The notes under the pieces: model-generated
What the model saw: only the letters and a program-made list of their open reading frames with translations
The model's database searches: none
Told to the model about the DNA's origin: nothing
Translations under genes and position numbers: made by a program
In this document: piece after piece, positions 193 through 30,967 of the stretch
Position numbering within the stretch: the first letter of the stretch is position 1
How the letters are laid out: the number at the start of each line of letters is the position of its first letter
From: a virus
Lineage: Duplodnaviria; Caudoviricetes
Virus record (IMG/VR): IMGVR_UViG_3300025073_000989
Strand: one strand, 5' to 3'
DNA length: 64,000 nucleotides

Positions 193-1107
193 ATGAAAAG
201 ATTTACAATTGGTACTGACCCGGAATTTTTTCTAAAAGAAAAAGAAACCGGAAAATTAGTATCAGCCATACCATATATTAACGGAACAAAGCATGAACCT
301 GAAGCCCTACCATCTGGTGGTACTATTCAAAGGGATAATGTAGCAGTAGAATTTGCAACTGCACCAGCAGTCTCAATGGATGACTTTATAAAAAAGATCA
401 GAGAAACATTCAAAGATGTACTTAAAGTAATTCCAGATAATTTCGATTTAGTAGCAACACCATCTGCTGTATTTGATGATGATCAATTAGAACACCCTGA
501 CGCTTTGACTTTCGGATGTGATCCAGATTATAACGCTTGGACCATTTCCGAAAACTCTGAAAATAATAAACCTAGTCATCCGAACAAAAACTTTAGAAGC
601 TGTGGGGGCCATATACACGTTGGACATGTAAGCGGTGATGGTAACGATTTTCTGCTAGATCCTTTTGGTAAAATTAATATGGTTAGGGGTATGGATCTAG
701 TTCACGGAATAGTATCAGTTATACTAGATAGTTCTATCGAGTCGATAGAAAGAAGAAAGCTGTACGGAAGCGCCGGCTGTCACCGCCCAACAGACTATGG
801 AGTTGAGTATAGAGTTCTAAGTAATTATTGGCTAAAGAGCCCTTTTCTAGTAATGCTTATGGATTCTTTAACACAAGATGTTTTAAAGTTAATTAAAGAA
901 AACAAACTTAATCAACTTATTAATTTTGTTGGTGAACAAGAAATTCAAAGTATTATAAACAATGGAGATGTCGCAAATGCCAATAGTATTTTTAATAAAG
1001 CTATAAAGAGCTGTCTAAGTGCAGATTCTATTTTTTACTTTGAAGAGAGTCTAAAGAGAGTTGAAAATATTAACCTGAAAAAAGAATGGGGACTTGAGGA
1101 GGTCTAA
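193..1107 (+). CDS. phiEco32-like COOH-NH2 ligase (type 2), copy 1
   Basis: Motifs TIGTDPEFFL, DNVAVEF, GCDPDYNAW, RSCGGHIHVG, YGSAGCHRPTDYGVEYRVLSNYW; GGAGG RBS upstream. Confidence 0.85.
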   Translation: MKRFTIGTDPEFFLKEKETGKLVSAIPYINGTKHEPEALPSGGTIQRDNVAVEFATAPAVSMDDFIKKIRETFKDVLKVIPDNFDLVATPSAVFDDDQLEHPDALTFGCDPDYNAWTISENSENNKPSHPNKNFRSCGGHIHVGHVSGDGNDFLLDPFGKINMVRGMDLVHGIVSVILDSSIESIERRKLYGSAGCHRPTDYGVEYRVLSNYWLKSPFLVMLMDSLTQDVLKLIKENKLNQLINFVGEQEIQSIINNGDVANANSIFNKAIKSCLSADSIFYFEESLKRVENINLKKEWGLEEV

Positions 1108-1902
1108 ATGTCAAAACGTATTGCAATTCCGGCCAGTAAAAGTAAAAATCAATTTTTTATTAATCAAGCGTATATTGAATATTTAACACAGGCTGGGTAT
1201 GAGGTAGTAATAGTTACACCATCAAGTAGTATACATGACACTGTAGCATCATGTTTTGGTTTAGTACTACCTGGTGGAATTGATATAGACCCGATTTATT
1301 ATGGAGAAGATAATATATGTTGCCAAGGAAGTGACCCGGAAAAAGATGATTTCGAAAGGAAGTTGTTTTATTCTTTCTTGAATCAAAACAAACCAATATT
1401 TGGTATATGCCGTGGTTTCCAATTGATAATGCGAGAGCTTATAGTCAACAAAATTCCTGGATATAAGTCTTTTTGTTTCTATCAGAATTTAAATAGGCAC
1501 AAAAATGTAGACGAGCTAGGAATAGCAAGGACAATACCAAGCCATAGTGTTACAGCAGCAGTTGGTACTTTGTATGGAGTGGAAGAACTATATAGCAGCA
1601 TATTTGTAAATTCTATGCACCATCAAGCAGTAATTATTAAAGTAGAAAGAAAAACAAACCCTTTAGTCCAAGTAGGACAGATATTTCCTCTAGCTGTAAC
1701 AAAAATAGGTCTAACGAGTAATATTTCCAACGAAGAGATTAAGAAGAAAACCAAAGAGGCTTTTGTAGTAGAAGCTTTAGGGGCAAGTATAAATAACACA
1801 AAAATAAGAGCAGTACAATGGCACCCGGAAGAGCTTCGAGATATAGCTCTATTACAAAACTTCTTTGGTGAAAAAGAAGAAAAGTTAATTGTAGGTAAAT
1901 AA
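1108..1902 (+). CDS. Class I glutamine amidotransferase / peptidase C26 (PuuD-like), copy 1
   Basis: LVLPGGIDIDP, GICRGFQ (catalytic Cys), VNSMHHQA, VQWHPE. Confidence 0.85.
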   Translation: MSKRIAIPASKSKNQFFINQAYIEYLTQAGYEVVIVTPSSSIHDTVASCFGLVLPGGIDIDPIYYGEDNICCQGSDPEKDDFERKLFYSFLNQNKPIFGICRGFQLIMRELIVNKIPGYKSFCFYQNLNRHKNVDELGIARTIPSHSVTAAVGTLYGVEELYSSIFVNSMHHQAVIIKVERKTNPLVQVGQIFPLAVTKIGLTSNISNEEIKKKTKEAFVVEALGASINNTKIRAVQWHPEELRDIALLQNFFGEKEEKLIVGK

Positions 1903-1904
1903 AT

Positions 1905-2174
1905 ATGGTAGACACTATAGACGATAATAAACTTAATGCCACAAGATGGAAACTAACTGTTTCTAGAGAGAACGGTACTACAGAACTTGAGCGCCTCGGC
2001 TTATCGCAACTCAAGCCTGTTTTAAAAAGAATAAAAGAACAGAACCCAAATAGTGATGGAGTTAAATTAATAAATACTACATTACTTGTGTTTGCTTACA
2101 TTGAACACTTCCTACAAGAGAGTCCACTTTCTTCACCAGTAGACAGAATACAAATACAACCGCTTGATACATAA
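1905..2174 (+). CDS. Hypothetical protein
   Basis: 89 aa ORF packed between neighbours in the same orientation. Confidence 0.5.
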   Translation: MVDTIDDNKLNATRWKLTVSRENGTTELERLGLSQLKPVLKRIKEQNPNSDGVKLINTTLLVFAYIEHFLQESPLSSPVDRIQIQPLDT

Positions 2175-3630
2175 GAATATGAAAGATAAATACCTTAGAG
2201 AAATAAATCCAAATTTTTCAGTTGTAGAACTTATAGCAGAAAAGTTTGACGATTATGATAAGCACCTTACTCCAAATGCCATAGTATTTGGAGGGGCAGT
2301 TAGAGATATCCTAGCTGGGCTGCCACTAGAAGGAGATCTAGACGTTGCTATTTGCAAAGCCGAATTTCCAACTATAATTAAAAGTTTATTAGAATCACCA
2401 AGATGGCAAAAGACTTTGAACAAAGGTGAAATAAAAAAGTATAAAGCCTCGTTTTCAGTAGATTCAATAGTAACTTTTGAAAATCTAAATGGAAGTAAAG
2501 TACAAATAATAACACCAACACCTTCTCATTTACCTGAAGCCGATCCATTTGTCGAAGCCATTAGTATAGTAAGGCAAGTTGATATTTTATGTTGTGCTTT
2601 ATTTCTAGATAGTGATGGAAATATTTTTGAAGTTATACCTGGCGCTGAAGAAGATTGTAAAAAAAGAGTATTACGGTTGGCCAAAAAAGATAACCCAGAT
2701 CTAAATAAAATTAAAGAACGAATTAATAAGTTAGTTTCTAGGGGCTGGGTTTCTGAAATAGATCTTAGTAAACTTTTTTCTAAAAGTAAAAAATCAAGAA
2801 TAACTAAAAAACAAAAAATCGAAGATGAAACTAATTATTCACCATATAGTTACAAAGCACCATATAATTACAAAGTATTAATAACTGTATCAAACAACCC
2901 TTTTATTTCCTCAAAGTTGACTTTGAATCTAATTAAGTTAAGCCGAGAAGTAGATATAGCTTCAGGTGTTTTACGTAACAAGATTTTTAATTTTTGTTCT
3001 ATAAATAAAGGCTACACTATTGAACTAAAGCAAGTAAAACAAGAAGAAATGTACATTCGTTCTGACCTAAATAAATTACTTGAACTGTGTACTTTTTTGA
3101 AGTTAGAACCTGTAATACTAAATACATTAGAAAGAGAAAGTTCATATCATAACAGCGAAAAAAAATCTTTGGATACAGAACCTATACGAGGTATAATCGA
3201 CTTTTATAAATTAGACCAAGATCAAAAACAGTTTTCTGAGTCAATAAAGGACAAAATAACTGAAAGCCCATACGCGCTGGACAAAATAACTGAAAGCCCA
3301 TACGCGCCGGAAAGTACCTTGGCTAAAGCTAAAAATAGTATAGAAAATATCTCGGTAGAATATAATATTACTTATTCTCCACCAGAAATACCAAAACAAC
3401 ATACTAGTACTAAAAACGGATTTGATCCTAGTACTGTAATCGTTGATAAGGAGTTTTTTCTTATACCAGCAGTAAAGGGACAACAGACGGAGCACAGTAA
3501 CATAAACAGTGGGCGTAATTCTGCTAATAAGGATGGCCTATATTATCGCCTTGAGCCTGCTACTACGACTTTTGTGAATAAAGTAGAATATAGGCGCAGA
3601 AAGGAGCAACTAGATATAGATGAAGGATAA
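2164..3630 (+). CDS. Divergent class II nucleotidyltransferase (CCA-adding/poly(A) polymerase head) with long unrelated C-terminus
   Basis: IVFGGAVRDILAG..GDLDVAI matches the GGxVRD..DxD signature; downstream DFT(I/M)NA-type and RxxR motifs are degenerate. Confidence 0.7.
   Translation: MIHKNMKDKYLREINPNFSVVELIAEKFDDYDKHLTPNAIVFGGAVRDILAGLPLEGDLDVAICKAEFPTIIKSLLESPRWQKTLNKGEIKKYKASFSVDSIVTFENLNGSKVQIITPTPSHLPEADPFVEAISIVRQVDILCCALFLDSDGNIFEVIPGAEEDCKKRVLRLAKKDNPDLNKIKERINKLVSRGWVSEIDLSKLFSKSKKSRITKKQKIEDETNYSPYSYKAPYNYKVLITVSNNPFISSKLTLNLIKLSREVDIASGVLRNKIFNFCSINKGYTIELKQVKQEEMYIRSDLNKLLELCTFLKLEPVILNTLERESSYHNSEKKSLDTEPIRGIIDFYKLDQDQKQFSESIKDKITESPYALDKITESPYAPESTLAKAKNSIENISVEYNITYSPPEIPKQHTSTKNGFDPSTVIVDKEFFLIPAVKGQQTEHSNINSGRNSANKDGLYYRLEPATTTFVNKVEYRRRKEQLDIDEG
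3249..3308 (+). repeat. 30-bp in-frame tandem duplication (DKITESPYA x2)
   Basis: ggacaaaataactgaaagcccatacgcgc(t/c) occurs twice back to back. Confidence 0.95.
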
Positions 3631-4024
3631 ATTAGAGGACGTCGGTTATATTTTTGTTTATGGTACTTTAAAAGTAGGAGGTACGTTTTCAAAACAGTTT
3701 GACAATTTTAGATTGAAAACCACCCCAGCCTCAATAAAAGGAACGATGTTTTTAGCACCCGGTAACTGGTTTCCAATAGGAATTTTGGGCGGAAACAACA
3801 TCATAAGGGGTGAATTACACAAATACGATTCTTTTACAGAAGTAATTAGAAGTTTAGATAGAATAGAGGGTTACTACGGAGAAAACGAACACAACTTATA
3901 TAATCGCAAACAAACAGCCGTTATAACAGATACAGGTAAGACATATGTTGCTACAGTTTATGAGTTTAACAGGGATGTTAGCAAACTAAAAGTAATTAGA
4001 TCTGGAGAATGGGAAATTAAATAA
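3620..4024 (+). CDS. Gamma-glutamylcyclotransferase (AIG2/YtfP-like)
   Basis: IFVYGTLKVGG, LDRIEGY, YNR motifs. Confidence 0.85.
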   Translation: MKDKLEDVGYIFVYGTLKVGGTFSKQFDNFRLKTTPASIKGTMFLAPGNWFPIGILGGNNIIRGELHKYDSFTEVIRSLDRIEGYYGENEHNLYNRKQTAVITDTGKTYVATVYEFNRDVSKLKVIRSGEWEIK

Positions 4025-4046
4025 TTCCCGATAAGGAGTAATAGAA

Positions 4047-4316
4047 ATGAAAATTAGAAAAATTAGTACTAAAACGGACTACTCATACTCTGTTGGTAAC
4101 ATATCAGATGTAGATGGTTCAGAGTTAGTGGTAGAAAAAATTACACAAGTACGAAAAGGCCGGTATGATATCTACCATGAATATTGGTATTCCGTACATT
4201 TTGCTGATAGTACAGCACACTGTTTAATTCCGGCCTCAGAGATTACTAGTCTTATTTATGACGTAAGTAAAGAAGAAAAGAAAAAGAATGAAGTACCGGA
4301 ATTACCGGAAGAATAA
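4047..4316 (+). CDS. Hypothetical protein
   Basis: 89 aa ORF with AAGGAG RBS. Confidence 0.6.
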   Translation: MKIRKISTKTDYSYSVGNISDVDGSELVVEKITQVRKGRYDIYHEYWYSVHFADSTAHCLIPASEITSLIYDVSKEEKKKNEVPELPEE

Positions 4317-4353
4317 ACCAATTATTAAAATTATAGTAAAACGGAGTTACTGA

Positions 4354-5055
4354 ATGTCAGGAAACAAAATACTTGTTGTAAACGGCTATAGCTATGCTGC
4401 GGCTATTGCTGGATTAGGCGCAGTTACTTTTGATGTAAATGAATTTTATAGTAAACCAGAAGACTTCAAGTTGGTAATGTTTACTGGAGGGGAAGATGTT
4501 TCTCCAGAATTATACGGAGATACTAGTCCACGTAGAGTGTGCCAGAATAGCTGGAAAAGAGATATGGAAGAACTAGATATCTTTAATTCTGCCATTAAAC
4601 ATGGTATAAAAATGACAGGTATATGTAGAGGATCTCAATTTCTAAATGTAATGTCTGGCGGAAAAATGATACACCACCTAAATAATCATGGAGGAGTTAC
4701 GCATGGTTTTGTAAGCCCAAAAAACAGAGAAGTACTACTTGTAAACTCTTTACATCATCAAATGATGATTCCCTCTGAAGAAGGTATTGTAATAGGTTGG
4801 GCAGAAAGAAAATTAGCCACTATATACTTAGGCAACACTGATGAGGTTACTGCGTGGGATGATGTAGAAGTAGAGGCTATTTTCTACCCAAAGACCCTAT
4901 GTTGTGGAGTACAATATCACCCTGAAATAATGAAAAAAGAGTCAGACGGTTATAGATTTTTCCACGAAATGATAGCAGACTTTTTAATGATGACTGCAAA
5001 ACAATTTTCTAGAATATATACTGCAAATGAAAAAACACATCAAGCATATAGGTAG
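4354..5055 (+). CDS. Class I glutamine amidotransferase / peptidase C26, copy 2
   Basis: FTGGEDVSPELYG, GICRGSQ, VNSLHHQM, VQYHPE. Confidence 0.85.
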   Translation: MSGNKILVVNGYSYAAAIAGLGAVTFDVNEFYSKPEDFKLVMFTGGEDVSPELYGDTSPRRVCQNSWKRDMEELDIFNSAIKHGIKMTGICRGSQFLNVMSGGKMIHHLNNHGGVTHGFVSPKNREVLLVNSLHHQMMIPSEEGIVIGWAERKLATIYLGNTDEVTAWDDVEVEAIFYPKTLCCGVQYHPEIMKKESDGYRFFHEMIADFLMMTAKQFSRIYTANEKTHQAYR

Positions 5056-8029: not shown

Positions 8030-11000
8030 ATGTCTTCAGTACAGATTGATCAAAAATTGAAATTTCTCTGCGAAGGAATCAAAAAACAATTTTTTAGTAA
8101 ATCAAGTGTAGATCTGATCAGTAAAAAGAAAGAAGGAAATCTTAGTATTACTTTTGAAAACAACTCTTTATGGATCAATATTTATGATGGAAAAAATAGC
8201 CACAGCATAGCTATACCAATACCATATTTAGACAAAGATTTACAGCTTTTAGTAAAGAACGATGTAGTACGAGCAACTTGCCCGTATTTTGTAGTAGGAC
8301 TTAACCAAGAGTTAGATTATATGGATCTCCTGTATACGGTTATTTGTGGGGATCCGTCATGTATTATTGAGGAGGATATTTTTCAAAGAACGCCCTTTAT
8401 TCAGCAAATTAGCTATTCTATAGAAAATGGTAACACATCATTTATAGCCCTAAAACTACAAAAAGTTATCAACAATATAGTAAATAATTTACCACTGCAC
8501 GAGGGCTCAATGAAGTCTTGGATCATGAACAAACGGCTCATGTTTATAGATCCAACATTTAACGCTTTGATTAACCCGAAAGACAGACTTTCATATCAAG
8601 TAAGCAAAGCTGAAGCGTTTTTTAATAAAGGATGGACACAAATAGGTCTTCCTGATGGTACAATGGTAGATAAAAATTACATGTTGAAGGTAGATTTAAA
8701 GCGCTTTGTTCCTTTTGGAAACCAGTTTCACAACCCAGCTAGAAATTTATACTCTACATTGGGGATGAATGGCGACGAGCTGCCAATGGTTCGTTCTGAG
8801 TCAATGCAGATCCTTATTGATAAAGGTATAAGTAGAACAGGATGGAATTTGTTTACGGTTTTTTATGATATTCCTGATACATGGGAAGATCAAATAATGG
8901 TAGATAGTTCACATGCAACAAAATTTATAACATATACAAAAAGGTACCAATGCTTTGGCACTGTATTAGTAAAAGAAAACGACGATTTAAAACAAGGACA
9001 ACAACTATCAAAAGCAATAGACGGCAACGGTGAGATATTTGATGAATTAGCCGAAGAGGCACATGTATCTAAAATTAATGAAATACTAGTTAATGTTGGT
9101 GGTGTTCCAGTAAAAGGATTTAATGTTATAGTATCTTATAAACGATATCTAAAAGAGGGTGTAAAAATAACCAACCTTTCGGCAAACAAAGGTGTGATAC
9201 GATTAGGGAAGCTAGGTTTTGCTGTAGACCCAAAAACTGGAGAACAACGAAAAATAGATGTAATTGTAGGACTGTCAGCAGTTAAAAAAAGAAAGAATTA
9301 TGCTCAAATATTTGAAGCACTATTAAATGTTGTAAACCAAGAAAGAGTTACAATAGTAGCCGACGATATTAAAAGTACTCTCGGTGATATCAAAAATCGT
9401 CTATTGGCGGAAGGTTTTCCAGAAGACGGTAGTAGGATGTGTCATACATACGCAGGTAATTTTTCTGCACTATGTGGTACTGTTTTCTGGGGAGTTATCC
9501 ATGATGTAGAGAATACAATATGGGACAAAGATACGACGTTTGGGGTAAATGGTAGAGGTTTAAGGACAACTGGCTTAAAGTTTTCTACAGTTGAGTTTAG
9601 AGCGCTAGAAACACGCTTTGGTAAAGATAATCCAGTACTAGCAGAAGTGTTATCTTATTCCCAAGGAACAACCGATTTGACAAATATGTTGGATGTTCTA
9701 AAAAGTAAACTTAATATAATTAAACCAGAAACACCGTGTTTGACTATAGATAATGTTAGAGAGGTTGATCAAACAACGTCAACTATAGTAAACGGAGATA
9801 TACTTTACGGCACTGTTGTAGATGAAATGTTTTATCCTAATGGTTTTGTACTACAACTGCCCTATATTTTTACAACAGCCTTAAACGGGAACAATAAAGT
9901 TGTATATGAAGGCATAAAAAATACTAATGTAAGTGCCCACAAGAAAATTAGTATAGACAAATTATATATTCCATGTGGAAATTTAAGAAAGAGTTGGCGC
10001 CACGGTACAGCTAAGTATGGGTTAAGCGAGATAGGTTCCGCAGTAAATAGAATAGTAATTACATCAAAAAGGTTAATAAAAGAACCAACCTCTAAAAACA
10101 ACATTACTATGTATTACAGCGCAATATCAAACTACTTTAAGCTAATAAGTAGAATACTTGGCACTAAAAATGGAGAGCTAAATAACTACGGTATGGCTGT
10201 AAGATACCCATATTCTGCAAAAGCAGTTGCAACCTTAAGTACAACTTTACCAAAAAACGTAATAGAAATTAATTCATCAGTAGCAAAAAAATTACAAATA
10301 GAAACAGGAGATGTAGTACTAGTAGAAAGATTTCCATGTTTAGGTTTTATGTCGCTTAGGCCACAAAAAATAAAGGTTACAGAAGACGATAAATGCAGAT
10401 ACACGATACGTGTTAGCGGTAATAGTTTAGGTTCTATGGGGTTAGATTTTGATGGTGATGTTATATACATAGCTGCCTTTCATACAGAAGAAGCAAAAGC
10501 ACTTCTAAATAAAGAATGGAAAAATCCCGACAAAACGTGCTATGATATTATTAAAAAATACAACGTTCAAAAAAGTAACCCTAGATTACAGGAAGTTACT
10601 ATTGACAATATTGATATAAAGGGATTTTCTCCGCTAACTATAGAAGAGCAAACAGGTATAGTAGGAGAACTTGCGGGAGTAAAAGCCTTTACTGGACCGG
10701 TAATAGCCTTTTTATACAATTTAATGAGAATTCTTGAAAATTCTAATATAAATAATAAAAAAAGAACGGCCGCCGGTCTAGAAGAAATGTTTACCATAAT
10801 AGGAGAATCAGTTTTTGATTTAAAGCATGGGATCAAATCCCCACATGACGTGTTTGTAGAAGCAATATGTACAGCAGATATAAATACGTTAGTAGAAAAT
10901 GACTTTGATAGAAGTACTTCTACTATTTTATGTAATTTAATAAAACAAAAAGCAAAAGAACTCGGAGTTGTTGATTTAAAAACTTATCATGAAAGGGCTA

Positions 11001-12635: not shown

Positions 12636-12636
12636 C

Positions 12637-12724: not shown

Positions 12725-12754
12725 TGCGTAAGTTTTATTCCATTTTTTAAAAAG

Positions 12755-17182: not shown

Positions 17183-18325
17183 ATGAAATTTAAGATACAA
17201 ATATCAGACAAAATGACACATGAGGACCAAAATGCTAAAATATTAAGAATACCGCGAGATTTAAGATCAGAACTTGGAATAAGTATTGGTGAAACTATAG
17301 ATCTTGGTACAAAAGATGGTAGTTTAATCAAATTAAACATAGGTCAAGCCTTTATAGAAGATAAAGATACAAACAGTAGAGTAGCTTTTGTTTCGAAACT
17401 TATTTTTGATGTATTGGAATTTATAGACAACGAAGAAAAAAACCCAATACCTCTAGTTAATGATATCACTTTAGGGGCTGATCCTGAATATTTTTTACTA
17501 AAAAAACAAAATCATAACATAGTAACAGCAAATAGCTTTTTTGGTAAATATGGTGCGATTGGCTATGATGGTATACTAGCAGAAATAAGACCAGAACCAC
17601 ATACATGTGAGGAAGGATTAACAAACAATATAAAAGGGTTACTTCAGAAAGCAAAAAACATAATAAGTACACATAAGACTCTAGGACAAGATACTACATT
17701 AGTGGCTAAATCTCATCATAGGGGAGTAGTTGCTGGATTTCATCTACATTATGGTATTATTTCTCCAGCATTACTAGCTCCAAATTACAACTATAATGTA
17801 TTAAATGTAATAATAGAACAAATAGTTAGAGTGTTAGATTACTATTTGGGAATTCCAAGTATAATACCTGAAGGGATTGAAGACTCGTCAAGAAGATGTG
17901 CCCCATTTACTTCTTATGGTAAAGCCGGAGACTATAGAGTAGATCATAGAACTTTAGAGTATAGAGTTCCAGGAGGACATCTTTTAAGGCATCCAAATCT
18001 AACTAAAGGTTTAATAGGTTTAGGGGCAGCTGTAATAGAAGATATTATAAGTAGAATAAAAGTATGTTCAGACAATTTTGATTTATCAAAAATATCCAAT
18101 ATCAACGAAAAAGATCTATATCCAAACATTCTTAGTAAGCAAGAATTAATTCAGACAATAGGTACTCCTGATACAAAAAAAGCAAAAGACAAATTAGACA
18201 GTATCTACAAGGATGTATCAAGTATGGTAAGTTACGGAAAAAGGAAAGAAACTATAGACTTGTTTTTCTCAGTCTTAGAAGAAAAATATAGTTGTTATAT
18301 TGAAGACAACTGGCAACTAAAATAG
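17183..18325 (+). CDS. phiEco32-like COOH-NH2 ligase, copy 2, with extra N-terminal domain
   Basis: TLGADPEYFL, DGILAEIRP, AGFHLHYG, YGKAGDYR, LEYRVPGG. Confidence 0.8.
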   Translation: MKFKIQISDKMTHEDQNAKILRIPRDLRSELGISIGETIDLGTKDGSLIKLNIGQAFIEDKDTNSRVAFVSKLIFDVLEFIDNEEKNPIPLVNDITLGADPEYFLLKKQNHNIVTANSFFGKYGAIGYDGILAEIRPEPHTCEEGLTNNIKGLLQKAKNIISTHKTLGQDTTLVAKSHHRGVVAGFHLHYGIISPALLAPNYNYNVLNVIIEQIVRVLDYYLGIPSIIPEGIEDSSRRCAPFTSYGKAGDYRVDHRTLEYRVPGGHLLRHPNLTKGLIGLGAAVIEDIISRIKVCSDNFDLSKISNINEKDLYPNILSKQELIQTIGTPDTKKAKDKLDSIYKDVSSMVSYGKRKETIDLFFSVLEEKYSCYIEDNWQLK

Positions 18326-20028: not shown

Positions 20029-20038
20029 GGTTTAATTA

Positions 20039-20851: not shown

Positions 20852-20860
20852 ATTAGAATT

Positions 20861-21664
20861 ATGAATAGAAATCTATTATATAGAATTAAAAAAATATTAT
20901 ATGGTGGTAATCCGTATGATAAGCTTATGGTAGCAAACTTAAAGACGTCTTATAGCAGTGACCATGATTTTGTAATTCCAATAGGTACTCCTTGCTTATT
21001 AAGCAAGCATATATTTCATAGCGACAGTAAAATAGTAGAAGTAATGATAAAATATCCATTCCTTAAGTATTTAAGTTTTGATACTACTGTACTAATTCGA
21101 AAAGAAAATCTTATTCCAACAAAAAATAATTTTCCAAATGAACATACAATTATTTCAGAGAAAGATTTTTGTAGCGCAAAAAGATTTGATGATTTAAGAT
21201 TACTAGTAGATACCTACGGTGCTGTAACTATAGTTTTTGATACTATACCAAAAGGGGACCCATTGGCTGTTGTAGAAAGTCTAGTAAACAAATTTTACTA
21301 TAAAACTTGTGTAGGACATAGTATAGATTCTTCCGCAGAAGGAAGTACAAATATTTTTATAGATATTGTTAAGATAGAAAATGTAATTCCCATAATAAAA
21401 CCTAATAGAAATAATGGATTGTTTATATCAGTATACACTTGTGATGTACAAGAAAATATGTATAATGATTATGTAGTCTATAAAAATTATATAAATTTAA
21501 TAGTAAGCGATTATTTAGATAATGTATTTGTTTTAGATGGTTCCTTTATAAGAAGTATAAATTTAGGAATAGAAGATAAACTAATTTTTACTCTTAGGCA
21601 AGTATTCAAAAACATTTTAATAAAAAACAAGCAAAAAATTAAACAAACAAATAAGGAGAACTAA
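20861..21664 (+). CDS. Hypothetical protein within the ligase cluster
   Basis: 267 aa ORF, operonic. Confidence 0.55.
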   Translation: MNRNLLYRIKKILYGGNPYDKLMVANLKTSYSSDHDFVIPIGTPCLLSKHIFHSDSKIVEVMIKYPFLKYLSFDTTVLIRKENLIPTKNNFPNEHTIISEKDFCSAKRFDDLRLLVDTYGAVTIVFDTIPKGDPLAVVESLVNKFYYKTCVGHSIDSSAEGSTNIFIDIVKIENVIPIIKPNRNNGLFISVYTCDVQENMYNDYVVYKNYINLIVSDYLDNVFVLDGSFIRSINLGIEDKLIFTLRQVFKNILIKNKQKIKQTNKEN

Positions 21665-21667
21665 CGT

Positions 21668-23395
21668 ATGTGTGGTGTTGTTGGATTAATAGCTTTCACA
21701 GAAACACCGAAACAGGAAGAGGCTATTAGACAAGAAGCTATGATATTTTTACTAACAGAAATTCTTCAGCAAACAATAACTAGAGGTTCAGACGCTACCG
21801 GAGTAGCATCCTTATTTAGAGACGGCCAGTACTTTGGTCAAAAAATGGGAATATCTGCTATAGAGTTTATAGCTAGATTTGGAGGAAAGAACGAAGATTA
21901 TGAGGGATTCTTAAGGTCCTGGAGAAAACACGGAGCTCCAGCTACATGTTCAATTGGTCATTGTAGAAAGAGCTCTGTTGGAAATTCTACAAATAACGCC
22001 AATAACCATCCAATAAAAGTAGGAGAAGTTTTGGGAATACACAATGGCACTCTTACAAATCATAACACTATATTTAAGAATTTTGGTTGTAAGAGGGACG
22101 GTACTGTTGACAGTGAGGCCATATTTAGGCTGCTTCACTTCTTTTCACAAAACGGCACAAACCCATTTACTTTAGATATGGTACAAGAAGTAACTGCTAG
22201 ATTAGAGGGATCTTATTCTGTACTAGCATTTAGTGGTAATAACCCATTTCAAGTAGTGGCGTTTAGGGATTCAAGGCCCATGGAGTTTGCCCTAATAAAG
22301 CCACTTAAACTTGTAGTAGTAGCCTCAGAAAAAGATTTTATAAAAAAATCCCTTTTTAAAATGAATAAGGAAACGCTACTATACGGTAATAAAAGTAACT
22401 TTCCAAGACTTAATGCTAAGAGTATTGATTTTTTTAGTCTTCCTGACGATTCAATTGCAATTTTTAATTTAACAAAAAAAGTAGGGGAAGACACTCAGAT
22501 AGAAGAGTTGTATGATTTTGAGCGGATTAAAAAGACAAATAAAATTTGGAGAGCTGGATATAATTCGTACCCGGCTAAGACAGTAAACGAAGTTAATCCT
22601 ACCGCCCATCAAACTACGCCTCAAACAAATAATTTACCGACACCTGTCCAAGCTAAAGCAGTATTCATATTAGAAAATACTCAGCCTGCGGGTATTGGTA
22701 GAATTTATAACAAAGTCTTGAAGAAATACGTTGCAGCTTCGCCAGCTGTAGATATAACCACACCTATCAGAAATGTAAAAGTTAGTGCTTCTGAAGATAA
22801 AAGTAAACCTGAAATTATAGAAATTGAAGCTATCGATGTAGATGAAAGTGTAGATATAAACACTACAGCTAACGAAGAGGCTTTAAATACTGTAGAAGTT
22901 GTAATGGATGTAGACCCAGAAGCAATCGAAGCAGCAAACTTAGCTGTAAAAAGCTTAAAAAAGTATGAAAATGAAGAAGAATTATTAAATGATCTAGAAA
23001 TGACTAAAGATCAAGTAATAGTTCTAAAAGACCTACCAATACACTCTTTAGCAAATAAAGTAAGAAAAGCAGCATTCAAAGTTGGAGTTCATGAGGGCTA
23101 CGTATTAGGAAAGAATAAGTCGGACCCTGACTCAACAAATAAAAAATTAGAAAATGAAAAGTACATAAGGATATTAAAAACTATTTCTGGAATAATGGCT
23201 ATGCTTATCGAATCCACCAATGTATCTGCTATTGATTCCTCAACGATGGAACGTGTAGTTACAAAAGCATTCTCCGATGGCGAGGAAATAAGTAGTGATG
23301 CTATAGGTAGTTTATTTTCAATTGGTGATATGCGCAAACATGTTGTATTTAGACAAATAAGAGATATGGTTCAGTGCAAAGAACACAGGAGATAA
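21668..23395 (+). CDS. Class II (Ntn) glutamine amidotransferase, copy 2, with long C-terminal extension
   Basis: MCGVVG, RGSDATG, GHCR, NNHP, GIHNGTL, VDSE. Confidence 0.85.
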   Translation: MCGVVGLIAFTETPKQEEAIRQEAMIFLLTEILQQTITRGSDATGVASLFRDGQYFGQKMGISAIEFIARFGGKNEDYEGFLRSWRKHGAPATCSIGHCRKSSVGNSTNNANNHPIKVGEVLGIHNGTLTNHNTIFKNFGCKRDGTVDSEAIFRLLHFFSQNGTNPFTLDMVQEVTARLEGSYSVLAFSGNNPFQVVAFRDSRPMEFALIKPLKLVVVASEKDFIKKSLFKMNKETLLYGNKSNFPRLNAKSIDFFSLPDDSIAIFNLTKKVGEDTQIEELYDFERIKKTNKIWRAGYNSYPAKTVNEVNPTAHQTTPQTNNLPTPVQAKAVFILENTQPAGIGRIYNKVLKKYVAASPAVDITTPIRNVKVSASEDKSKPEIIEIEAIDVDESVDINTTANEEALNTVEVVMDVDPEAIEAANLAVKSLKKYENEEELLNDLEMTKDQVIVLKDLPIHSLANKVRKAAFKVGVHEGYVLGKNKSDPDSTNKKLENEKYIRILKTISGIMAMLIESTNVSAIDSSTMERVVTKAFSDGEEISSDAIGSLFSIGDMRKHVVFRQIRDMVQCKEHRR

Positions 23396-23401
23396 TTTTA
23401 T

Positions 23402-24709
23402 ATGCGTAAAAAACTTATTTTGGTAGTTTCTAAAAAAATGAATTCTGTTGGAAAAGAGAGAAACGAAAGCAACCTAATACGCATGACAGCAAATACTCGC
23501 CAGCATATGGGGTACAGTAACGATAAAGTAGAGGTTTGGCTATCTAGTAGTACCCAAGAAAGAATAGCTAGTACCTTATTATTAGATATAAACAGAGCCT
23601 ACAAAGATGACATCAAAAAACTCAATGAATTAGTGGCTGATGGAAAACTTTTACCTGAGGATATAGTTAGGGTAGGCTTTGTCACTGAAGATATATACCA
23701 AACCATAGTAGGTAAAAACAAAGCAGTAGATAGTAATATTTGGATATCAGATCGCATAGAAGATACTGTTATAGGTGCTGATCCTGAATTTATGCTGTTT
23801 GATAAAAACGGAAAGGTTGTTAGAGCCGACAAAATAGTAGGTTTTACAAAAATAGGTAATCTTGGACATGATGGGGCTATAGCTGAATTAAGACCTAATC
23901 CAGCTATGACTCCAATGGAACTAGCAAGCAATATACATAAAATACTTTCAGATAAAAATTTAACTAGTTCAATAGAACAATATGATTGGAGAGGAATGTG
24001 TTACTTCAAAGACCAAGACAGAGATTATACCGTCGGTGGTCACATTCACATAGGAAGTCCAATACAGATCGCAAAATTACCACCAGACAAACGAGAAGCA
24101 TTCTTTAAGGTTCTAAATAAAATACTAGATGAACTTTTGGCTATTCCTATGACACGGTTAGACGGGCAAAACGGTAAAATAAGAAGAACTACTGGTATTT
24201 TTGGTAAATATGGATATTTTGGCGAAATGCGTCAATGTAATGGACGACTAGAACATAGAACACTTAGTGGTATGTGGCTATGTCATCCAGAAATAACTAA
24301 AATGGTAATTGGAACAGCAAAATTAATTATCGATGAAGTATTTAGATTAATCTCAGAAAAGAAATTTAATATCAATTATATGTCTGTTCCAGACAAATAC
24401 AAATCAATAAATGTATTTACAAGTGATTTTGACGGGTGGAAGGATATAGAATTAGCCAGAGATATGGGATGCATTAGGCAATCTTCAGTGATGCGGTCTT
24501 TATTAAATGAAGCAGAACCACAAAAAGTAAATAAGGATTTTCTTACCAAATGGTATGCAACACTAAAGACATTCTCTAGTTATAGAGAAAATAGTATATT
24601 TTTAGATGGTTTGTTTGAATTACTTAAGATCCCACTAAAAAACTTAAAAGGAGTAGAAACAAATTTAAAAAAGACTTGGTTAGAAGGAAAACCAATATTT
24701 ATAAAGTAG
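23402..24709 (+). CDS. phiEco32-like COOH-NH2 ligase, copy 3, with extra N-terminal domain
   Basis: IGADPEFML, DGAIAELRP, GGHIHIG, YGYFGEMR, LEHRTLSG. Confidence 0.8.
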   Translation: MRKKLILVVSKKMNSVGKERNESNLIRMTANTRQHMGYSNDKVEVWLSSSTQERIASTLLLDINRAYKDDIKKLNELVADGKLLPEDIVRVGFVTEDIYQTIVGKNKAVDSNIWISDRIEDTVIGADPEFMLFDKNGKVVRADKIVGFTKIGNLGHDGAIAELRPNPAMTPMELASNIHKILSDKNLTSSIEQYDWRGMCYFKDQDRDYTVGGHIHIGSPIQIAKLPPDKREAFFKVLNKILDELLAIPMTRLDGQNGKIRRTTGIFGKYGYFGEMRQCNGRLEHRTLSGMWLCHPEITKMVIGTAKLIIDEVFRLISEKKFNINYMSVPDKYKSINVFTSDFDGWKDIELARDMGCIRQSSVMRSLLNEAEPQKVNKDFLTKWYATLKTFSSYRENSIFLDGLFELLKIPLKNLKGVETNLKKTWLEGKPIFIK

Positions 24710-24747
24710 TATTTAATAATAACTTAAACAATTAAGGAGAAAAGAAC

Positions 24748-25821
24748 ATGAACAAACAAACAGCAATTTTCTATAGTGGTGCCACTGACGTTACTGGTAA
24801 GGCTTTAGTGGAGGCATTAGAAGTTAATGGTTGTAGTAGTAAGCCTACAGGTGTAAAACTGGTCATTGGTTGGGGCGCAAAGGCAGAGGGACAAGTTGCT
24901 TTTGGTGGCGACGTAAAAGTATTAAACCATCCAGAAAGAATTCGTGATAATAGGAATAAAGTTAAAACACTGCATACTCTTAAAAAAAGTAACGTCCCTG
25001 TAGCAAGTTTTACTGAAGCTGCTACCATTAACAATGCTTTAGCAAATGGAACGTTAACTTTACCGGTAATCGGTAGAACTAACTTTCATCAAGGCGGAAA
25101 GGGTTTTTGGCTCTGCTTAACAAAAAATCACATAACCAATGCCATTAATGAAGGTGCTCAGTATTTCCAAAACTATTTAGATATGACAGATGAGTATAGA
25201 ATACATGTCTTTGGTGGAGAAGTTATTTATGCCCAAAAGAAAATCAAACGAGATAATATGTCCGATGCCTTTGAAGAGCAACATGCGGAAAAAATTATAA
25301 ATTCCGCCGAAAAGTCCGGAAAAAAAGTTGATAAAGATACGTTGACCTATACGTTAGAACAGGTAGGAAAACGTTTACAACCACAAGCAGACATGATTAT
25401 TAGATCCAATACTCGTGGTTGGAAATTTGTATCAGTTACTACAAATAAACTGAGTAAAGCCCTAGCAGAAGTAGCCATTGCAGCAGTTAAGGCTGTAGGT
25501 CTAGACTTCGGTGCCGTAGACTGCTGTATTACAGAACAAGGGCCTTATATTATCGAAATAAACTCGGGACCAGGATTAGAAAAAACTGCTTTTGAAAAAT
25601 ATGTAGCATGCTTTAAGAAAGTAATTTCAGATACTTTTACTGAAAAGCCAAAAAACACCAAATCACCGGAACCAGAAACACTACAATTTAAAAGTGCAAA
25701 GAAAGCTGAAGTAAGCAATCTGGTAACTAAGACTAAGTTAATGCTGGAAATGGCAGAAAGTGCGGATGAAGTAGAAGCGGCAGCATTAGAAAAGGTGTTT
25801 GCCAAAATGTTTAATAAATAA
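24748..25821 (+). CDS. ATP-grasp ligase (RimK/YheCD-like), copy 1
   Basis: LPVIGR..HQGGKGF, EYRIHV, GLDFGAVD, IIEINSGPG. Confidence 0.85.
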   Translation: MNKQTAIFYSGATDVTGKALVEALEVNGCSSKPTGVKLVIGWGAKAEGQVAFGGDVKVLNHPERIRDNRNKVKTLHTLKKSNVPVASFTEAATINNALANGTLTLPVIGRTNFHQGGKGFWLCLTKNHITNAINEGAQYFQNYLDMTDEYRIHVFGGEVIYAQKKIKRDNMSDAFEEQHAEKIINSAEKSGKKVDKDTLTYTLEQVGKRLQPQADMIIRSNTRGWKFVSVTTNKLSKALAEVAIAAVKAVGLDFGAVDCCITEQGPYIIEINSGPGLEKTAFEKYVACFKKVISDTFTEKPKNTKSPEPETLQFKSAKKAEVSNLVTKTKLMLEMAESADEVEAAALEKVFAKMFNK

Positions 25822-25834
25822 AGAAAAAAATATT

Positions 25835-26257
25835 ATGGCCGAGTTCTACATATCTTTAGCTAAGTCAGAAATAGCTGAACAAATAGCTAACATGCTTAAC
25901 AATTTTAATAAGTTAACTGTTTTACATGATGAATATACAATAAATAATAGTAATACTTGTTATTTTATTAAAACAGCTATTAGCTCAGTCAAAGCAGATA
26001 TAGTAATAGGATGTGTAGGGCTCTACCAAGACTCTCATAATACAAGTAAAATAAAACACCTGTGTGTAATTCCGCAGTATAGACGATTTGGTATAGCAAA
26101 AAATCTAATACAAGTAGCAATTTTAAACTGTAAAACAGACTATGTTTACATGACTATTAGAGAAGATAATATACCCAGCTTGATGTTAGCTAAAAGTTTA
26201 GGGTTTGTCTTTGTTAAAAAAAGTTGTAATATATTAACAGTGGCGAGGAGGAAGTAG
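25835..26257 (+). CDS. GNAT-family acetyltransferase
   Basis: IKHLCVIPQYRRFGIAKNLI acetyl-CoA motif, NIPSLMLAKSLGF; start moved to the ATG at 25835. Confidence 0.8.
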   Translation: MAEFYISLAKSEIAEQIANMLNNFNKLTVLHDEYTINNSNTCYFIKTAISSVKADIVIGCVGLYQDSHNTSKIKHLCVIPQYRRFGIAKNLIQVAILNCKTDYVYMTIREDNIPSLMLAKSLGFVFVKKSCNILTVARRK

Positions 26258-27025
26258 ATGCCGAATTGGACGTATGAGGGTGTTGATTATATTGTAGTAG
26301 AATTGGTAAATAAAGCAAAGATGATCAACGGTGTGTCCTCTATAGTAGCCGAACAAGATGTTGTACGTGGATTATTTGCTGGACTAAAACTAATTCCAGG
26401 AAACAGTAAAGAAAAAAGTAAATATTTTTGTTTAGTAAAGAAAGGAAACAACTATGAAATGTTGAATATGAATTTATGGTTGATCCTATCGATAGAAAAG
26501 CTGGCTAAATCAGTCAAAAGGCTTCTTTTATTTAGAATGCATGAAGAAGATCAAAAAGTAGCTACTGAAGTATTATTTGAGGCAGTTACTTCTTTTGTAG
26601 AACAGCAACTAATAATTCCAAATACTCTAATAATAGATACAACTAAATATAAAAACCCATCTGCTGCCGGCGAAGGTAATTATAAATATAAAAACCCATC
26701 TGCTGCCGGCGAAGGTAATTATAAATTTGCAAATACTAAACCAGCAAGTATTAATATAGATTATATAAATATAAACACGGCTAATAGTACAAGTACAACT
26801 TATAACGGTGTTAGTTCACCAGCTATTACAGTAATCAAAAGAAAAAGTAAAAAACCAAGTACAAAAGATTTGACAAACATGATGGAACTGGTTACTTTAT
26901 TAGCAAAGGGAGAATATAAAGCACCAGCAATTCCTATAATTAAAGAAAAAGAAAACAACGAAACCGTTGTTGATTATAATCCGTATATAAGAGACGCGGC
27001 TTTTGAAAACGAGTACTGTTGTTAG
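26258..27025 (+). CDS. Hypothetical protein with internal duplication
   Basis: 255 aa ORF; contains KYKNPSAAGEGNY twice. Confidence 0.6.
   Translation: MPNWTYEGVDYIVVELVNKAKMINGVSSIVAEQDVVRGLFAGLKLIPGNSKEKSKYFCLVKKGNNYEMLNMNLWLILSIEKLAKSVKRLLLFRMHEEDQKVATEVLFEAVTSFVEQQLIIPNTLIIDTTKYKNPSAAGEGNYKYKNPSAAGEGNYKFANTKPASINIDYININTANSTSTTYNGVSSPAITVIKRKSKKPSTKDLTNMMELVTLLAKGEYKAPAIPIIKEKENNETVVDYNPYIRDAAFENEYCC
26644..26726 (+). repeat. 39-bp in-frame tandem duplication
   Basis: taaatataaaaacccatctgctgccggcgaaggtaatta x2. Confidence 0.95.
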
Positions 27026-28793: not shown

Positions 28794-29831
28794 ATATCGT
28801 GGTCGAGATAAAAAAATGTCCGTAAAAATAAAAATCGTTATTGTAGTACAAAGCATTTTTGCTAATTCTTAAATAAATTTCATTGAGACAGGCTACAGGT
28901 CAAACAAAAACCGTAAGCACAAGTAAATACAATAAGAGTTTAATATTTTTCTAAAACTTATATGTATAAAAGTTTATTTAAGGTTAACATACACCAAACA
29001 GTTTATAGTGTTAGAAAAATCCAGTAGTTTTTTCAAACTCGAACACATTTTTCTGAATATAAACCGTATTATTTTAAATTGCTATAAAGCCTTTTTGGCA
29101 TGCATAGAATTTTAAACAAATAATACAGGGATTACTAGTTCAATAAACAACGAAAAGAATTCAATGATGTAGCATAGAATAGGCATAATGCAATTATTTA
29201 ATACTGACACAACCAGGTTTAGCTGAATTTTCCATCAAACAAAACAATTCAGTAAAGCTATCGGAAGATAGTTATAGCAATCAGTCGGCTGTAAGTTACA
29301 AAAAAAGACTGAGTCAGGGCATATTAAGTTTAAAATCTTTCTTAATATAAAAAAATCTTGACAGCAAGTAAAAAAAATTAACTACTAAAGTCAAATTAAA
29401 TAATTAAAGAAAGTTCGAATCTTTCTCTTCAGATACGCAATTAACTTAAACGTGTTTATTGAGAACTGTTTGGAGTATAGTACAAACACCCTCACTTGGG
29501 TGGTTTACTATACTTTAAATCCAATTTTTGTTGGTTATATTACTTAAGAGTTCTGTAGACGAGACAGGTAGATATTAGCGGAATTCCTATAGTGTATATC
29601 TACATATAACTAACAAAGTTATAATAATACCATTCTGCATAGTTAGTCCTTCCTTCAAAATTATTAACTATAGAGTGGATTTAAACTGGATAGTTTATCC
29701 AGTACATAAACCCAGAGAGCTTGTAGTTTTCACACACAACGGTAACTTTCTCATTCATGAGAACGGATTTAAGCTACATCCGATAAAGAGCTCTCTATTT
29801 CTTTAATATTAAATTTAAGGGTAATAAAATA
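28794..29831. ncRNA. About 1 kb ORF-free region rich in stem-loops; candidate structured RNA or control region
   Basis: No ORF of 60 aa or more in the track; many helices listed in findings; family not recognised. Confidence 0.35.
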
Positions 29832-30218
29832 ATGGGATTAGAATTTTCTATTGACGAAGACGATGAGCTTGATAACAACGAAAACGAATATCTAGTTGAT
29901 GAATCGGAGTCAGAAGTTGACTACGATAATGATGATGTAGATAATATAAATACAGATATGTACTCTAATCTAAACACAGAAAAATCACTAACAGATATAT
30001 TTGATAACGATGGTTCACTTTTTACATCAGTACAATTAGGATTAGCTTTAGGCTTGGCAGAAGAACTAGCACAAGACCAAGAAGATAGATATAGGCACAT
30101 AGATACATTGAGTAAACGCAGTATTAAAGCAAGACAGTTGGATTTGGTTTCTATTAAAAAAGAAGACAGACCCACAAGAAAATTTGAAGCATACGTAAAT
30201 AACCTGTTAAATCACTAA
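29832..30218 (+). CDS. Highly acidic hypothetical protein
   Basis: D/E-rich N-terminal half; AAGGG RBS. Confidence 0.6.
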   Translation: MGLEFSIDEDDELDNNENEYLVDESESEVDYDNDDVDNINTDMYSNLNTEKSLTDIFDNDGSLFTSVQLGLALGLAEELAQDQEDRYRHIDTLSKRSIKARQLDLVSIKKEDRPTRKFEAYVNNLLNH

Positions 30219-30232
30219 TATGGATTCTAAAA

Positions 30233-30967
30233 ATGATATTCATAACTGGTAAAAAAGGGACCAAAGCCAAACTGACTATTTCTAGAAAAGCAGAAATACC
30301 GTTATATAAAAAAAGAAAACTTGATGCCATCTTAATAAACTACGGTTCTCCTAATTTAGACAGGTGTATAAACGGAAACAATAAATTAGTAATTCTAAAT
30401 AGACATGTTTCAAAAACCAAATATGCTGTTATAAAAGAAGCTGAAGCTGCTGGTATTCTAGTTCCGGAAAGCAGAATACAATTACTTAGAAATGCAAATC
30501 TAGATGATTGGATCGAAAAAAAACATCACTCTATAGGTGGAGTAGGTATCATTAAGGCTAGAAAACATACAAAAATAAACGGAAAATATTATCAACGGTT
30601 TATAAAAGATAGATTATATGAATTAAGGGTACATGCTTTTGCTTGGACTAAGAATTGGTATGTACAAAAAAGACTAGGAAGTAAAAAGGAAATAGCCTGG
30701 AATTATAGTAACGGTGGTAAATTTCAAAATGTACAAAATAAAATTGGGGTCTTTAAGGAAGCCATAGAAATAGCCAAAAAAGTATTGAAACTAAGAAATA
30801 TGGCTTTCGGTGCCTTAGATTTTATTGTCGATAAGAACTTAAATATCTACTTTATAGAAGTAAATTCAGCTCCAGGCTTTACAGAATTTAGTGAACATAT
30901 ATACATAGAGGCATTTAAAGCGTTAAAGCAATTAAATAAAAAAGAATTATTAAAATTAGCTTCCTAA
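30233..30967 (+). CDS. ATP-grasp ligase, copy 2
   Basis: HSIGGVGI, ELRVHAF, AFGALDF, FIEVNSAPG. Confidence 0.8.
   Translation: MIFITGKKGTKAKLTISRKAEIPLYKKRKLDAILINYGSPNLDRCINGNNKLVILNRHVSKTKYAVIKEAEAAGILVPESRIQLLRNANLDDWIEKKHHSIGGVGIIKARKHTKINGKYYQRFIKDRLYELRVHAFAWTKNWYVQKRLGSKKEIAWNYSNGGKFQNVQNKIGVFKEAIEIAKKVLKLRNMAFGALDFIVDKNLNIYFIEVNSAPGFTEFSEHIYIEAFKALKQLNKKELLKLAS

Follow-up and report, generated by a model that had tools for sequence, protein, structure and literature searches.

A putative gamma-glutamyl amide pathway of uncultured huge phages, encoded by an apparently enlarged and split phiEco32-type amide-ligase cassette

What might a phage make with six amide-forming ligases, five hydrolytic enzymes and an acetyltransferase, all encoded in one region of its genome? 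The question is raised by the IMG/VR virus record IMGVR_UViG_3300025073_000989, of which we analysed a stretch of 64,000 nucleotides (this whole stretch is hereafter referred to as the window). The window has a low GC content (~33%) and comes from an uncultured giant phage; the longest contig carrying its proteins is 275,832 bp, and we put the genome at ~270 kb. A sequence-only reading of this DNA had listed twelve enzymes and proposed that they form a heavily duplicated peptide- or amide-ligation pathway, a larger relative of the phiEco32 gene set, which writes and erases a modification. Judged by its sequence, the locus is an enlarged, split version of the cassette found in phages of the phiEco32/LUZ24/PaP3/RIO-1 type, more than twice as large as that cassette.

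Profile searches of Pfam (with curated cut-offs), NCBIfam and PHROG, together with structure searches for solved relatives, placed each of the twelve enzymes in its family at the coordinates given in Table 1, eleven of them above the Pfam cut-offs and the remaining one, ligase D, by fold and motifs. The catalytic motifs are kept in all of them, and the earlier listing of twelve intact enzymes was thus borne out. The set consists of three PF14395 COOH-NH2 ligases (A, B and C), one ligase of the glutamine synthetase (GS) fold (D), two RimK-like ATP-grasp enzymes, two N-terminal nucleophile (Ntn; class II) amidotransferases, two C26 hydrolases, a GGACT-type cyclotransferase and a GNAT acetyltransferase. 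The six ligases therefore comprise four enzymes with the fold shared by GS and gamma-glutamylcysteine synthetase (GCS) and two of the RimK family, and the five hydrolytic enzymes (the two C26, the two Ntn and GGACT) all come from families whose substrates are free glutamine or terminal gamma-glutamyl amides. The genes lie in block 1 (193–5055) and block 2 (17183–26257, plus 30233–30967), which are separated by 12 kb that include an RNA polymerase and a variable insert. Nearly all genes from base 193 to ~42.7 kb are on the plus strand, and their spacing is tight (−29 to 52 nt). Promoter and terminator scans of the window gave counts at chance level and did not resolve operon boundaries, and Rfam and tRNA scans of the 64-kb window found no RNA genes. 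Chance does not account for the gene set: a search of 14 control genomes, bacterial and archaeal, returned no PF14395 match, and related contigs show synteny over the whole set.

A phage amidoligase cassette was reportedly predicted in small phages by Iyer, Abhiman, Burroughs and Aravind in 2009. In PaP3 (orf41–50) and phiEco32 (genes 77–88), it is a contiguous, co-directional operon just upstream of the primase/helicase and contains a PF14395 ligase, an Amidoligase_2 enzyme, a long class II amidotransferase, an ATP-grasp enzyme, a GGCT and several unknown proteins. Each of these five canonical enzymes has one counterpart in the window, four of them recognisable by sequence, in agreement with the proposed kinship to the phiEco32 set. 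Ligase A is 35% identical to PaP3 orf48; GGACT corresponds to phiEco32 gp77 (profile E 1.5e-10) and PaP3 orf42; the long Ntn enzyme corresponds to PaP3 orf45 (profile E 3.6e-14) and phiEco32 gp83; and ATP-grasp 1 corresponds to phiEco32 gp80 (profile E 1.3e-23) and PaP3 orf43 (E 2.3e-20). The fifth would be ligase D, discussed below. In both settings the genes are phage-borne and stand beside replication or transcription genes.

The two arrangements differ in their layout and content. The single operon of the canonical cassette is replaced here by two blocks on the same strand, 12 kb apart and flanking the RNA polymerase, with the counterparts of the canonical enzymes divided between them: ligase A and GGACT in block 1, and ligase D, the long Ntn enzyme and ATP-grasp 1 in block 2. 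This split of the canonical set is conserved in the related contigs G001 and G004. Neither block is a complete cassette alone, and we therefore argue that both are parts of one system. Seven enzymes are extra with respect to the canonical set, namely ligases B and C, the short Ntn enzyme, ATP-grasp 2, the two C26 hydrolases and GNAT, and ligase D, unlike its canonical equivalent, has a 16-cysteine insert and no match to Pfam Amidoligase_2. Profiles built from the proteins of the present clade detected no counterparts of the canonical unknown proteins (PaP3 orf41, 44, 47, 49 and 50; phiEco32 gp76, 78, 79, 81, 82, 85, 87 and 88). No published experimental product of the cassette was found in the literature searched, and those passages of the Iyer jumbo-phage survey that were searched (PMC7824862) do not describe the expanded set.

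Comparison with relatives shows how firmly the two blocks are held. Block 2 occurs in the same order in six IMG/VR contigs and in one 313-kb NCBI metagenome contig, and is flanked in these relatives by a helicase and by a RuvB-like ATPase together with a sigma factor. Block 1 lies upstream of block 2, in the same order, in all three contigs that reach far enough (G001, G004 and G006); it is cut by the contig end in G003 and G005, which are syntenic up to that point, and one further contig stops before block 1. The GGACT gene of G004 is located elsewhere, ~9 kb upstream of ligase A. The enzymes are 39–58% identical to those of G001, and the corresponding values for the RNA polymerase (47%) and the helicase (50%) are similar. 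Both blocks are thus about as conserved as the RNA polymerase, and from this conservation and the order kept in the relatives it follows that they are a fixed core feature of a clade of uncultured huge phages. The genes are real, co-inherited and strongly conserved. Two findings that could have undone the sequence-only reading, namely degenerate active sites and copies that never occur together, were not made: the motifs are intact and invariant across 14–50 homologues, and the copies are found together in every related contig of sufficient length.

This clade is without a deposited cultured relative in GenBank. Searches of GenBank phages with ligase B, ligase D and the RNA polymerase (tblastn), and with 25 kb of the window (megablast), returned no matches. 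Ligase A was the only window protein of those tried that had relatives there (318 records, all below 60% identity).

The term 'heavily duplicated', which the sequence-only reading had applied to the locus, did not hold. Identities between paralogues are 24–28% for the ligases, 25% for the C26 pair, 29% for the Ntn domains and 33% over 88 residues for the ATP-grasp enzymes, values that, together with the deep and separate clades of the copies, rule out recent duplication. In a maximum-likelihood tree of the ligases, ligase A grouped with PaP3 orf48 and phiEco32 gp86 (support 100/99), while B and C formed two separate clades, each represented in all seven genomes sampled. The copies are thus ancient paralogues that have long been separate, and ligase A is orthologous to the ligase of the canonical cassette (PaP3 orf48, phiEco32 gp86).

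Table 1. Coordinates of the two enzyme blocks and of the genes lying among them (positions in the window; aa, amino acids; E, expectation value)
Feature	Coordinates	Strand	Assignment or remark
Ligase A, PF14395 COOH-NH2 ligase, 304 aa	193..1107	+	Pfam 48 bits; phrog_3815 E 6.6e-62
C26 hydrolase 1 (class I amidotransferase fold), PuuD-like	1108..1902	+	Peptidase_C26 E 3e-25
Small protein alpha, 89 aa	1905..2174	+	Position kept after C26 hydrolase 1; no family match
488-aa protein, N-terminal nucleotidyltransferase (pol-beta/CCA-type) head motif	2164..3630	+	GGAVRD...GDLD motif
GGACT/AIG2-like gamma-glutamyl(amine) cyclotransferase	3620..4024	+	PF06094 E 2e-16
Small protein beta, 89 aa	4047..4316	+	Beta-rich core and acidic C-terminal tail (...PELPEE); no family match
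C26 hydrolase 2 (class I amidotransferase fold)	4354..5055	+	Peptidase_C26 E 1e-20
Ligase B, N-terminal small barrel-like domain (aa 1–87) and PF14395 catalytic domain	17183..18325	+	Pfam 93 bits
Ligase D, GS/GCS-fold amidoligase, 558 aa	18352..20028	+	Fold and motifs; 16-cysteine insert (aa 52–135), C-terminal winged-helix-like module
Short stand-alone Ntn (class II) amidotransferase/amidohydrolase, 270 aa	20039..20851	+	GATase_6 E 4e-13
267-aa fast-evolving protein between the two Ntn genes	20861..21664	+	Position conserved in relatives
Long Ntn (class II) amidotransferase, 575 aa	21668..23395	+	GATase_6 in N-terminal third; phrog_4736 E 6e-20
Ligase C, N-terminal extension and PF14395 domain, 435 aa	23402..24709	+	Pfam 85 bits
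ATP-grasp 1, RimK family	24748..25821	+	RimK E 2e-10; rimK_fam E 6e-15; phrog_2599 E 4e-40
GNAT acetyltransferase, N-alpha-acetyltransferase-like	25835..26257 (alternative start 25799)	+	Acetyltransf_1 E 1.4e-9
255-aa protein closing block 2	26258..27025	+	Position conserved; 23% identical in G004; 253-aa open reading frame at the same place in L018
ATP-grasp 2, 244 aa, paralogue of the cassette ATP-grasp	30233..30967	+	Downstream of sigma factor; Dala_Dala_lig_C, RimK and others; phrog_2599 E 5e-15

The three PF14395 ligases each carry the motif series DPE / ExR / HxH / ExR. In ligase A, DPE occupies residues 9–11, HxH 140–142 and ExR 205–207, and in ligase C the motifs lie at 127–129, 162–164, 214–216 and 284–286. 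Ligase B, for which AlphaFold gave a model with a mean predicted local distance difference test (pLDDT) score of 90.9, has D100, E102, E134, R136, H187, H189, E259 and R261 invariant in 50 homologues, and its residues 88–380 superpose on YbdK (Z 18.3), PafA (16.6), Dop (16.5) and plant glutamate-cysteine ligase (GCL; 16.5), with lower scores for true glutamine synthetases (Z 12–13 against 16–18). An N-terminal extension is common to ligases B and C and absent from ligase A, and C is 27.6% identical to B from residue 2 onwards; the N-terminus of B gave a weak match to MazE/AbrB (E 1.2e-4, below the cut-off).

Ligase D required assignment by structure, as no match was found in Pfam (including PF12224), NCBIfam or PHROG. 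An Atlas model of the protein matched clusters of Amidoligase_2 and GCS2. The AlphaFold model was of low confidence (mean pLDDT 55), and it was used only in so far as the motifs and the Atlas model bore it out; in an exhaustive structural search it retrieved a YbdK-like protein (Z 14.1), plant GCL (13.5), Dop (13.1) and PafA (12.3). The ExE, HxH and ExR strands are present, and E40, E42, H224, H226, E345 and R347, as well as the 16 cysteines, are invariant in 14 homologues. The best-modelled part (residues 480–558, pLDDT 73–91; window 19789–20028) resembles winged helices of DNA-binding proteins and cullins at Z 6–7, a range possibly common by chance, and we take it as a lead only. We found 565 database relatives of ligase D on contigs of up to 330 kb, with identities of at least 51% among the 120 listed. 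These results suggest that ligase D is the counterpart of the canonical Amidoligase_2 at the level of the fold, by which alone the two are linked.

The other two ligases and the acetyltransferase have family matches in Pfam. RimK is the best solved relative of ATP-grasp 1, a weak match to LysX (E 2.8e-5) lying far below the cut-off; the orthologue of ATP-grasp 2 occupies the same position in G004 (44% identity), and both ATP-grasp enzymes keep D...ExN. GNAT is conserved in all the relatives and has the motif QYRRFGIA (Q/RxxGxA). Its named solved relatives are mostly N-alpha-acetyltransferases (Naa30, archaeal NAT and RimI) and its top match is an unnamed GNAT, all of these matches being weak.

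The hydrolytic enzymes point to a common type of substrate. The start of C26 hydrolase 1 directly abuts the stop of ligase A; the enzyme keeps the triad Cys101, His239 and Glu241, and its best solved relatives are PuuD (6vtv; a gamma-glutamyl-gamma-aminobutyrate hydrolase) and Lin1909. The triad of C26 hydrolase 2 (C91, H189 and E191) is invariant in six orthologues, and its best solved relatives are Lin1909 and 7d4r, which we take to be hydrolases of the SpuA type. For both C26 enzymes these matches (E 1e-6 to 1e-9) are at the family level only. GGACT keeps YGTL (14–17) and the catalytic Glu83. The short and long Ntn enzymes alike have the Met-Cys start, HCR, NG and DSE, thereby retaining the residues (Arg, Asn-Gly and Asp) with which GlmS-type enzymes hold glutamine, and they match the glutaminase domains of GlmS, PurF and EgtC, the last weakly; for the short enzyme the GlmS N-domain (E 5e-26) was accompanied by PurF and EgtC. 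C2, R100, N126, G127 and D148 of the long enzyme are invariant in 48 homologues and its C-terminal half is variable. Residues 235–575 gave no family, solved relative or fold lead in our searches, and the idea that this poorly conserved half, without a recognisable family or fold, is a synthase domain was set aside. Since all five hydrolytic enzymes come from glutamine or gamma-glutamyl families, the chemistry common to the set would be to form amide bonds of the gamma-glutamyl type at the expense of ATP and to remove them. The gamma-glutamyl chemistry suggested by the sequence-only reading fits the C26 enzymes closest to PuuD or to Lin1909/7d4r, the GGACT family and the glutamine/gamma-glutamyl pocket kept in the Ntn enzymes.

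How these activities might be combined is suggested by known pathways. A transient gamma-glutamyl group is used in butirosin synthesis (BtrJ/BtrG), in ergothioneine synthesis (EgtA/EgtC) and in Puu/Spu polyamine metabolism. The locus shares with these, and with the gamma-glutamyl cycle, the logic by which the group is added by a GS/GCS-fold or ATP-grasp ligase and later taken off by an enzyme of the C26, Ntn or GGCT type; it differs from them in having no orthology to them and far more ligases. On this model, the ATP-dependent ligases would couple amines to carboxylates, of which glutamate or an intermediate bearing it is the likeliest, and the five hydrolytic enzymes would then either provide ammonia or remove the gamma-glutamyl group again. 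Read most economically, gamma-glutamyl would serve as a transient handle in the biosynthesis or metabolism of a small amine or peptide conjugate. Because the genes are placed with transcription and replication genes, the pathway probably runs inside the infected cell. On balance we think it probable, if far from assured, that this enlarged split cassette, fixed in the core of a huge-phage clade, encodes in its two blocks a single gamma-glutamyl-type amide pathway leading to such a conjugate.

Several observations weigh against this interpretation. The order of the reactions, the service of six ligases to one product and the working of both blocks as one pathway are what we infer; 12 kb of DNA, including the RNA polymerase gene, separate the blocks, whose functional link comes from comparison, not from an operon. 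Some accessory modules look like binders of nucleic acid or protein (on ligases B and C, the AbrB-like N-domain; on ligase D, the insert with 16 Cys and the C-terminus resembling a winged helix), and GNAT and the ATP-grasp enzymes are closest to protein-modifying families (N-alpha-acetyltransferases and RimK, respectively). The profile of ligase D against PaP3 orf46 (Amidoligase_2) was not significant, with only the RCSxHxH motif aligned. The tailoring enzymes of the add-then-remove pathways (oxidases, pyridoxal phosphate enzymes, methyltransferases and carrier proteins) were not found in the two blocks. As to the 'erasers' of the sequence-only reading, the hydrolases might just as well donate ammonia or belong to a pathway in which a transient gamma-glutamyl group is taken off; six ligases acting in series, a protein tag and regulatory erasers are possible.

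One gene outside the twelve deserves attention in this regard. An open reading frame (ORF) of 89–112 aa, corresponding to small protein beta, lies immediately 5′ of C26 hydrolase 2 in all six genomes. Three of these genomes have the tail P-[ED]-L-P-E-[ED] and the other three have looser acidic variants of it, and the last residue across the six is E, A, E, E, D and D. The profile of small protein beta matched no ORF of the PaP3 and phiEco32 cassette stretches. We regard this protein as a candidate partner or substrate of the system.

The same enzymes might instead tag a protein or peptide, along the lines of the sequence-only reading: a protein of the host or of the phage would receive a tag of gamma-glutamyl or polyglutamate type, and the C26, Ntn and GGACT enzymes would remove this tag as dedicated erasers; small protein beta could be the target. 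We hold this to be rather unlikely. The PF14395 ligases and the 558-aa ligase do score almost as high against PafA (the Pup ligase) and Dop (the depupylase) as against YbdK, and the locus shares with pupylation both this carboxylate-amine ligase fold and the combination of ligases with enzymes acting on Gln/Glu amides, but the PafA match does not discriminate, the small-molecule enzymes YbdK and GCL scoring equal or higher. Tagging would also suit the RimK family membership of the ATP-grasp enzymes (RimK glutamylates the acidic C-terminus of ribosomal protein S6), the nearness of GNAT to N-alpha-acetyltransferases, and the extra N-terminal domain of ligases B and C, which could bind a macromolecule. 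The acidic-tailed (...PELPE[ED]-type) small protein that adjoins C26 hydrolase 2 in six of six genomes speaks for it as well; however, its last residue varies, as it does not in genuine carriers or tags, and PaP3 and phiEco32 lack a counterpart of it, although they have counterparts of the core enzymes. No Pup-like GGQ/GGE terminus was seen among the ORFs read in the two blocks. LysW-type systems pair a RimK/LysX-family ATP-grasp enzyme with a small carrier protein whose C-terminal Glu is invariant; small protein beta is conserved in position and has a varying last residue. A more elaborate form of the idea, which seems to us quite unlikely, takes all twelve enzymes as a macromolecule-tagging machine: ligases guided by the AbrB-like, Cys-rich and winged-helix-like modules would assemble, on a protein, a chain of several gamma-glutamyl or glutamate residues, GNAT would cap it, and the PuuD-like, Ntn and GGACT enzymes would trim or erase it, the target being either small protein beta or a protein associated with DNA or RNA polymerase. 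If this were true, pupylation or polyglutamylation would have an analogue in a virus, complete with dedicated erasers.

Polyamines matter for DNA condensation and are reported to restrict phage replication. A Puu/Spu-like handling of polyamines or other gamma-glutamyl amines, by which the phage would control intracellular polyamine levels or release nitrogen, agrees with the closeness of C26 hydrolase 1 to PuuD and of C26 hydrolase 2 to Lin1909 and 7d4r, the intact triads of both C26 enzymes and the action of the GGACT family on gamma-glutamyl amines. GS-fold ligases are reported to gamma-glutamylate polyamines in bacteria (PMC5403932, PMC8998196), and in P. aeruginosa, on which LUZ24 and PaP3 grow, polyamines reportedly act as a danger signal linked to infection by phages (PMC9992862). 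Yet the ligases here are GCS2/YbdK-like and not glutamine synthetases of the PuuA/GlnA3 type, GNAT is not SpeG-like, the C26 enzymes are not in the canonical cassettes of Pseudomonas phages, no family of PuuB/PuuC-type oxidases or aldehyde dehydrogenases was found among the ORFs scanned in the 64-kb window, and six ligases exceed the need; we consider this role distinctly unlikely. If the ligases modified nucleic acid, by coupling amino acids or amines to bases or to groups bound to DNA or RNA, be it in tRNA or in the phage's own genome, this would account for the siting of the cassette next to genes for replication or transcription in three phage groups unrelated to one another, for the AbrB/MazE-like N-domain, Cys-rich insert and winged-helix-like C-terminus, and for the nucleotidyltransferase-like gene in block 1, phiEco32 too having one near its cassette. 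These domain matches are weak, however, and no enzyme able to produce a base with a carboxyl or hydroxymethyl group (hydroxymethylase, DpdA, kinase or aGPT-Pplase) was matched in the 64-kb window of the ~270-kb genome. In the Pseudomonas phage Rembedalsseter, native-versus-amplified Nanopore sequencing found nicks only and no base modification (PMC11780129), which counts mildly against this view, Rembedalsseter being of the same genus as the cassette-bearing UFV-P2 and itself a possible carrier of the cassette. All in all, we judge nucleic-acid modification very unlikely. It is scarcely likely, finally, that two unrelated neighbouring modules are involved, a gamma-glutamyl hydrolase/ligase set in block 1 and a peptide-ligase set in block 2 with different targets: the 12-kb gap with its RNA polymerase and variable insert, and the displaced GGACT of G004, would suit such a division, but the counterparts of the two blocks are contiguous in one operon in PaP3 and phiEco32, and both blocks are present in every relative with a long enough contig.

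The remaining ORFs of the two blocks belong to proteins without assigned families. ORFs of a size similar to that of small protein alpha are located at the same place in G001, G004 and G006, with weak similarity. The 488-aa protein gave only weak matches, to PolyA_pol and phrog_1614; its N-terminal 200 aa are conserved in G001, no tblastn match to it was found in the 60 kb of G004 searched, and it is not a core member of the system. The 267-aa protein between the Ntn genes has only 14 distant relatives among 1.8 billion representatives, and family and fold searches with it gave no lead. Neither did such searches give any match for the 255-aa protein that closes block 2; in this protein a unit of 13 residues (KYKNPSAAGEGNY) is repeated in tandem without change (~26640–26725), and the last two residues are cysteines.

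Between the blocks, 8030–11338 (plus strand) encodes a 1102-aa protein with weak matches to the RNA polymerase families Rpb2 domain 6 and Rpb1 domain 2; it has the appearance of a two-barrel RNA polymerase in which beta-like and beta-prime-like parts are fused, and is 44–47% identical in relatives. The GC content of 12295–14700, a region that includes RtcB (12755–13945), is 41% against ~33% around it, and this region (~12.3–14.7 kb) is not in the syntenic region of G001, G004 or the 313-kb NCBI contig. An inserted cassette therefore fits, and the RtcB region is an insertion that lies outside the amide-ligase system. The orthologue in G004 of the helicase encoded at 15718–17130 of the window is interrupted: its residues 17–220 and 215–463 match ~1 kb apart (~24139–25178 of the joined 60-kb stretch), which suggests an intron, an intein or a homing-endonuclease insertion.

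Further along the window, a radical SAM protein (33151–34035) is followed by two RNA_ligase-domain proteins (34394–35680 and 37018–37653), the whole spanning 33151–37653 on the plus strand; with RtcB, the window thus has three RNA-repair ligases. An NAD salvage set at 38249–40740 (plus strand) and 51579–52541 (minus strand), consisting of a cytidylyltransferase-like (NMNAT-type)/Nudix fusion, a NAMPT-type nicotinamide phosphoribosyltransferase and a phosphoribosyl pyrophosphate synthetase, is similar to the NAD-reconstitution counter-defence sets of other phages. The phage also encodes N-terminal protein processing, by a peptide deformylase and an M24 methionine aminopeptidase (41748–42287, plus strand, and 48561–49307, minus strand). 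An IS605 OrfB/TnpB-like gene on the minus strand (55302–56561; OrfB_IS605, Cas12f1-like TNB and helix-turn-helix domains) adjoins an N6/N4 DNA methylase (54260–55246), and a ClpB-like AAA+ protein (AAA_2 and ClpB_D2-small) adjoins a Rad52/22-family annealing protein at 60457–63573 (minus strand).

The phiEco32/LUZ24-type cassette is present in hundreds of phages, including therapeutic phages of Pseudomonas and E. coli, and the question of its product is ~17 years old. The enzymes added in the huge-phage clade, namely the PuuD-like hydrolases, the second Ntn enzyme and the N-alpha-acetyltransferase-like GNAT, narrow the chemistry towards terminal gamma-glutamyl amides with a free alpha-amine, and small protein beta offers a concrete candidate partner for testing. 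As a fixed core module next to the clade's own RNA polymerase, the pathway would be important to the biology of these phages rather than accessory.

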